The notes under the pieces were generated by a model. The model saw only the letters and a program-made list of their open reading frames with translations, did no database searches and was not told the origin of the DNA. From sequence record MW822007.1: a stretch of DNA of 64,000 bases; one strand, 5' to 3'. The position numbers and the translations under genes were made by a program. Shown here piece after piece: positions 32,699 through 33,154 of this stretch. Source of the stretch: Escherichia phage BF15. The stretch's first letter is position 1; each line of letters starts with the position of its first letter.

Positions 32699-33154
32699 TT
32701 ATTTTAAATCATCTGCCCAATCGAGTTTAAGAGGCTCTTTGTATTCACGATCTAATACGACCGGAATTTGTACATCACCGCTAAATGATAAGGGCCCAAC
32801 ATTATAAGACAATGTTATATGCGGTGTGTAATCATCAAAATCATGTGTAGCACCTAGTGCCCGCGCATACATGTGTCGACAGCGCAGATATTCAGAATCT
32901 AGTACAAGTACAAGAGTCGATCCATCTTGTGTTTTCCATACTTCTAAATGTCCAGAAGAAGCTACTTCAAAACTTCCACTCGATGGAACATATGGAACAT
33001 TTATTCTTGAATAACATATGGTCGAATGAATTTTTTCTCTAGGAACTGGATTAGGAACACGCAAAGAGCGCTGAAGTTCTTCCAGCGCATCAAGTGTTAA
33101 TTCTGAAAACTTAGCTGCTACATAAAGACCCGTTGAAAAGTCTTTAAATTCCAT
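32699..33154 (-). CDS. 57B: 2H phosphoesterase, gene 57B (Acb1-type anti-CBASS phosphodiesterase candidate)
   Basis: two H-x-T/S motifs (HSTI, HITL); 151 aa; directly upstream of 57A. Confidence 0.7.

Follow-up and report, generated by a model that had tools for sequence, protein, structure and literature searches.

Gene 57B of Escherichia phage BF15, a near-identical relative of the T4 anti-CBASS nuclease gene acb1

Organization of the gene 1-57A-57B locus

The DNA analyzed here is a 64,000-nucleotide stretch of Escherichia phage BF15 (MW822007.1), referred to as the window. It derives from a mosaic Tequatrovirus; the best matches in a phage collection are ∼96% identical over 24 kb, and none is identical. 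The gene of interest, which we call acb1 as the counterpart of T4 gene 57B, lies on the minus strand (32699 to 33154) and codes for a 151-residue protein from an ATG start in the open reading frame listing. Two neighbors are encoded on the same strand: gene 57A (33154 to 33396), coding for the tail-fiber assembly chaperone (PF17594 GP57, E = 1.4e-50), and gene 1 (33396 to 34121), coding for a dNMP kinase (PF21448 DNMK, E = 7.9e-106) and placed as in T4. The transcription order is thus gene 1, then 57A, then 57B. The original prediction had 57B directly upstream of 57A, which holds merely in the sense that it has the lower plus-strand coordinates; in the direction of transcription it is downstream. 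T4 57B occupies the same syntenic position, between the gene 1-57A pair and the region of internal proteins and tRNAs, and on the 3' side of acb1 in BF15 there are genes for internal head proteins, open reading frames like trna.4 and trna.3, and eight tRNAs. Two short open reading frames on the plus strand (32857 to 33042 and 32871 to 33014) are contained within acb1.

Both junctions, gene 1/57A and 57A/57B, have a single base common to the two neighboring genes, and at the second of these the TAA stop codon of 57A overlaps the acb1 ATG in the sequence TAATG. The one-base overlaps suggest that acb1 shares a transcript with 57A and gene 1, and its translation is probably coupled to theirs by the overlap of stop and start codons. 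No obvious strong Shine-Dalgarno motif was seen upstream of acb1, so its level of expression would depend on this putative coupling to 57A. A scan for promoters and terminators from 31800 to 34900, compared with shuffled sequence, gave 12 promoter-like sites where 11.5 are expected, which is not an enrichment, and one terminator-like site where 1.5 are expected, with none following acb1; by itself the scan backs no regulatory claim. An Rfam scan of 29000 to 35000 reported the eight tRNAs only, with no RNA element in or beside acb1.

Relationship to T4 gene 57B

The acb1 DNA is 99.1% identical to T4 57B, and 560 phage records match it. There are four substitutions in the open reading frame relative to T4 (NC_000866), three of which are synonymous. 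The fourth is at codon 51 (33002 to 33004, minus strand), where DNA and protein alignments show ATA (Ile) in place of the GTA that codes for Val52 in T4. Pairwise alignment with T4 Acb1 (NP_049750.1) shows 150 of 151 residues to be identical, such that V52I (in T4 numbering) is the sole amino acid substitution. It is conservative, and it falls in a column that is variable in the family, with V, I, L, K, and others in a 40-sequence alignment; two family members (P0043 and P0047) naturally have Ile at this position.

The start of the protein also differs. At the end of 57A (33152 to 33157, minus strand) the stop codon is TAA rather than the TGA of T4, with ATGATGG changed to TAATGG; the first of the in-frame ATG codons in T4 is therefore lost, and the BF15 protein is shorter by one Met. 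Most Acb1 family members recovered in a homolog search are 151 residues long, which hints that the second ATG is the conserved start and that the annotated 152-residue T4 form may carry an extra Met.

Three of the four differences from T4 are at third positions of codons in the minus-strand frame, as are 8 of the 10 differences from phage HMD-9; only one of the 10 is nonsynonymous. That the changes are mostly synonymous and in third positions argues that the minus-strand frame is under purifying selection. The exact 151-residue protein is already public, having been seen on 51 contigs, including that of phage KK4, and its UniRef name is "Anti-CBASS protein Acb1."

Catalytic motifs and family membership

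The two H-x-T/S motifs reported in the original prediction, HSTI and HITL, are both present, beginning at H43 and H112, with a spacing of 69 residues between the histidines. The first catalytic HxT motif consists of codons H43-S44-T45 (33020 to 33028, minus strand; CATTCGACC), corresponding to H44 and T46 of T4, and the second of codons H112-I113-T114 (32813 to 32821, minus strand; CATATAACA), corresponding to T4 H113 and T115. A motif pair of this kind is not significant by itself, with at least two motifs being present in 17% of shuffles of the acb1 protein, and the 2H assignment takes its weight from homology and not from the pair. A misalignment of these histidines with the catalytic residues of Acb1 would have spoken against the assignment; instead they align exactly with H44/T46/H113/T115 of T4 and with the equivalent residues of the Acb1 of Erwinia phage FBB1. 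The H43/T45/H112/T114 tetrad is invariant in 40 family members, down to 28% identity, and the same alignment has S49, L81, V82, P111, and L115 as other invariant positions and Y11, E140, and W146 conserved in at least 90% of sequences. The base-stacking aromatic residues Y11, W73, F106, and W146 are identical to T4 Y12, W74, F107, and W147, and the adenine-contacting E140 is identical to T4 E141 in the pairwise alignment. All of the published functional residues are thus kept, each at the T4 position minus one.

The protein scores 201.2 bits in a full-length match to the Pfam Acb1 family (PF23474; cutoff, 27 bits; E = 7.8e-60), with residues 8 to 149 covering profile positions 1 to 144 of 144. 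A sequence search of the PDB recovers FBB1 Acb1 (7T26 and 7T27, E = 5.6e-62), in which HTT and HIT are the counterparts of HST and HIT. A database search yielded 76 homologs, all with PF23474 save one 99-residue fragment (P0071), and an NCBIfam scan of the protein returned no matching model.

Orthologs of this gene in RefSeq and in PHROG 755 are labeled "RNA ligase," and a different function has to be weighed, in which 57B is a LigT-like 2'-5' RNA ligase or an RNA 2',3'-cyclic phosphodiesterase whose targets are the ends of RNA molecules, as in the repair of tRNA. The eight tRNA genes 1.7 to 3.5 kb downstream of acb1 fit with such a role, and there is a weak Pfam match to 2_5_RNA_ligase2 (PF13563, E = 0.12). 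That match, however, reaches 12.8 bits where the curated cutoff is 27 and spans only residues 80 to 122, which leaves the protein outside the LigT-type family, and the label itself is an automated superfamily transfer with no tested function behind it.

Predicted structure

An AlphaFold model built with the 40-sequence alignment has a pLDDT of 90.4 and a pTM of 0.83; a single-sequence model was unusable (pLDDT 43). The best Foldseek matches are the FBB1 Acb1 structures 7T26 and 7T27 (E = 1e-19, TM-score of 0.95 to 0.97, rmsd of 0.8 to 1.1 Å), with the comparison to 7T26 giving a TM-score of 0.97 and an rmsd of 0.8 Å. Residues of the C-terminal lid are present, with a pLDDT below 50 for residues 148 to 151 and a mean of 66 for residues 141 to 150, and such low values are what would be expected of a flexible lid. 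Weaker Foldseek matches are to the phosphodiesterase of Burkholderia phage BCSR5 and then to LigT, TT0787, Usb1, CPDase, MHV ns2, rotavirus VP3, and AKAP18. The two H-x-T/S motifs and these fold matches together place the protein in the 2H phosphoesterase superfamily.

The resemblance of the model to Escherichia coli LigT and Thermus TT0787 (E of ∼2e-4 to 5e-4, TM-score of ∼0.5) is the structural argument for a function on RNA ends, but the likeness is remote, at 13 to 15% identity and with an rmsd of 6 to 8 Å, compared with 0.8 Å to Acb1. The subthreshold LigT profile and the remoteness of the structural similarity lead us to reject the RNA-ligase reading, which we consider very improbable, and further evidence against it comes from the published biochemistry of the T4 protein described below.

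The BF15 protein is like T4 Acb1 not only in its near-identity and in the gene 1-57A-57B order but also in the tetrad, the aromatic residues, the Glu, and the C-terminal lid; it differs in the Ile for Val at T4 position 52 and in an N terminus that is one residue shorter. FBB1 Acb1, for which there are apo (7T26) and 3'3'-cGAMP-bound (7T27) structures, is ∼65 to 67% identical over the whole crystallized chain, although FBB1 is from a different host genus and its protein has HTT instead of HST as the first motif, as well as one additional residue following the TQ(D/S)G turn. The BCSR5 phosphodiesterase (9Q2G and 9Q2Y), deposited as "Anti-CBASS protein Acb1," is a distant Acb1-family member in which both HxT motifs align (E = 0.0055, TM-score of ∼0.6 to 0.7), but it is longer (165 residues) and only ∼18% identical; a literature search for these structures found no paper. 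LigT, Usb1, the plant and bacterial CPDases, coronavirus ns2, and rotavirus VP3 share the 2H fold and the two HxT/S motifs, but these other 2H enzymes are remote (9 to 17% identity, TM-score of 0.4 to 0.6) and differ in their substrates and linkage specificity. The ns2 and VP3 proteins degrade the host immune second messenger 2'-5' oligoadenylate, the same strategy as that of Acb1.

Acb1 function

The product of T4 57B was found by activity-guided fractionation as a 3'3'-cGAMP-degrading enzyme and was named Acb1 (Hobbs et al. 2022, PMC9117128), in agreement with the original prediction, which described it as a 2H phosphoesterase that degrades the cyclic oligonucleotides of CBASS. No 3'3'-cGAMP cleavage remains in lysates of T4 Δacb1, and the mutant has a >300-fold defect on CBASS hosts only, growing normally and plating like the wild type where CBASS is absent (PMC9117128). 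That a 99%-identical protein is a cyclic-oligonucleotide nuclease, with a deletion phenotype confined to CBASS hosts, weighs further against a role on RNA ends. Structures of FBB1 Acb1 show the 2H fold, with Y12, W74, F107, and W147 stacking on the bases, E141 reading the adenine N6, and residues 145 to 152 forming a C-terminal lid (PMC9117128). Catalysis by the H44/T46/H113/T115 tetrad requires no metal and proceeds to GpAp in two steps, with a cyclic phosphate as the intermediate, and the H44A/H113A protein is inactive; the enzyme cleaves the 3'-5' linkages of cyclic oligonucleotides but is unable to cleave the 2'-5' linkage in 3'2'-cGAMP (PMC9117128). Experimental support for the function extends to the T4 protein and nine further homologs, and a transposon screen provides independent confirmation, with 57B/acb1 not required on K-12 but depleted when the host carried CBASS.

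These phenotypes also bear on the possibility that 57B acts in tail-fiber assembly together with gp57A, as the gene number common to both, their adjacency, and the TAATG overlap might suggest. The normal plating of T4 Δacb1 without CBASS and the nonessentiality of 57B on K-12 in the T4 transposon library are contrary to such a role, and both the fold and the catalytic tetrad belong to a phosphoesterase, not to a chaperone. We have rejected this explanation on the strength of the normal growth of deletion mutants, and of all the readings considered it has the least to recommend it, being scarcely credible.

The open reading frame is almost certainly an intact ortholog of T4 Acb1 (gp57B) in a mosaic T4-like phage. 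The identification is based on the integrity of the gene, near-identity with T4, conservation of the functional residues, synteny, and the predicted fold. For substrate range, chemistry, and the anti-CBASS effect in vivo we extrapolate from published work on T4 Acb1 (99% identical), and by this analogy the BF15 protein would be a small metal-independent 2H phosphoesterase. Y11, W73, F106, and W146 would stack on the bases and E140 would make the adenine-specific contact, with the C-terminal lid shutting over the ligand. The H43/T45/H112/T114 tetrad would provide acid-base catalysis, such that the adenosine 2'-OH attacks the 3'-5' phosphodiester bond, giving a cyclic phosphate intermediate and then a linear product with a 3'-phosphate (GpAp). 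Destruction of the second messenger would leave the CBASS effectors unactivated and thereby prevent abortive infection.

This copy of acb1 is already known and there is nothing new in it, in agreement with the expectation that the function would not be novel; the gene has been characterized, and its discovery here raises no new question. Its practical value is in correct annotation, as many public records give "hypothetical protein" or "RNA ligase." It is conceivable, but unlikely, that Acb1 has a second role here beyond CBASS evasion, either in degrading the cA3 of type III CRISPR systems or in that CBASS, and not Panoptes, has shaped the host range of a phage that retains acb1 together with acb2. 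According to recent work, T-even phages are sensitive to Panoptes guard systems because Acb1 degrades cA3, and escapers arise by inactivating acb1; the published discussion of Acb1 in general already includes both the cA3/type III CRISPR and the Panoptes ideas. There is no window-specific support for a new Acb1 function, V52I being in a variable column.

Internal-protein genes downstream of acb1

Directly downstream of acb1 are genes for two small internal head proteins (32348 to 32632 and 31979 to 32287, minus strand). Both proteins start with MKTFKEFINEAA, and the MKTFKEF start is common to T4 IPI. The TTG start of the first of these open reading frames is probably spurious, with the ATG at MKTF being the likely start. 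The proteins match the "internal head protein" PHROGs 7673 (E = 1e-54) and 2667 (E = 1e-41), and the DNA resembles the Ip7/Ip9 region of RB32. A tblastn search with T4 ipI, the anti-GmrSD inhibitor, found no match anywhere in the 64-kb window, and with other internal proteins in its place the phage thus carries a different internal-protein cassette, an RB32 Ip7/Ip9-type pair downstream of acb1, unlike T4.

We note a promoter-like site (32657 to 32685, minus strand) in the 66 bp that separate acb1 from the first internal-protein gene, with TTTACA, a 17-nucleotide spacer, and TACTAT preceded by TG. Relative to T4, the hexamer regions GTTTACAT and TGATACTAT are conserved and the spacer has diverged, which suggests that this may be a functional early-type promoter for the internal-protein genes, in a region where the total of promoter-like sites is no higher than in shuffled sequence.

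Other counterdefense and host-interference genes in the window

The presence of 57B had been taken to mark the window as rich in counterdefense genes, and this is borne out in part: an Acb2 gene, gp2, and the internal-protein locus favor it, and the absence of T4 ipI does not. The acb2 gene is the ortholog of T4 vs.4 and codes for a cyclic-oligonucleotide sponge (21415 to 21678, minus strand); its product is 94% identical to T4 Vs.4 and matches the Pfam Acb2/Tad1 hairpin family (PF24729, E = 9e-20). With acb1 and the vs.4 ortholog both present, the phage has an anti-CBASS nuclease and an anti-CBASS sponge. An intact acb1 together with acb2 predicts resistance to many of the CBASS systems whose signals are cyclic di- or trinucleotides containing adenosine, and published work predicts sensitivity of the phage to Panoptes guard systems, which fire upon cA3 depletion.

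Further host-interference genes in the window are those for gp2 and Pin. The gp2 DNA-end protector (34808 to 35632, minus strand), annotated as shielding DNA ends from exonuclease V, is identical to T4 at 273 of 274 residues, and Pin, a Lon-protease inhibitor (4575 to 5057, minus strand), is 98% identical to its T4 counterpart. Adjacent to the gene for gp2 is the ortholog of T4 gene 4 (35632 to 36084, minus strand), assigned by position as coding for the head completion protein, in which we observe a match to a nuclease-like domain, the TnsA-like endonuclease N-terminal family (PF08722, E = 2.8e-21).

The tRNA cluster (29592 to 30950) contains a GIY-YIG-type open reading frame of 221 codons (29672 to 30337, minus strand) where T4 has the segB homing endonuclease gene, between tRNA-Arg and a tRNA with a CAT anticodon; HMD-9 instead has tRNA-Asn and tRNA-Tyr at this location. 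The CAT-anticodon tRNA is called "Met" by ARAGORN, whereas its counterpart in the T4 annotation is tRNA-Ile.
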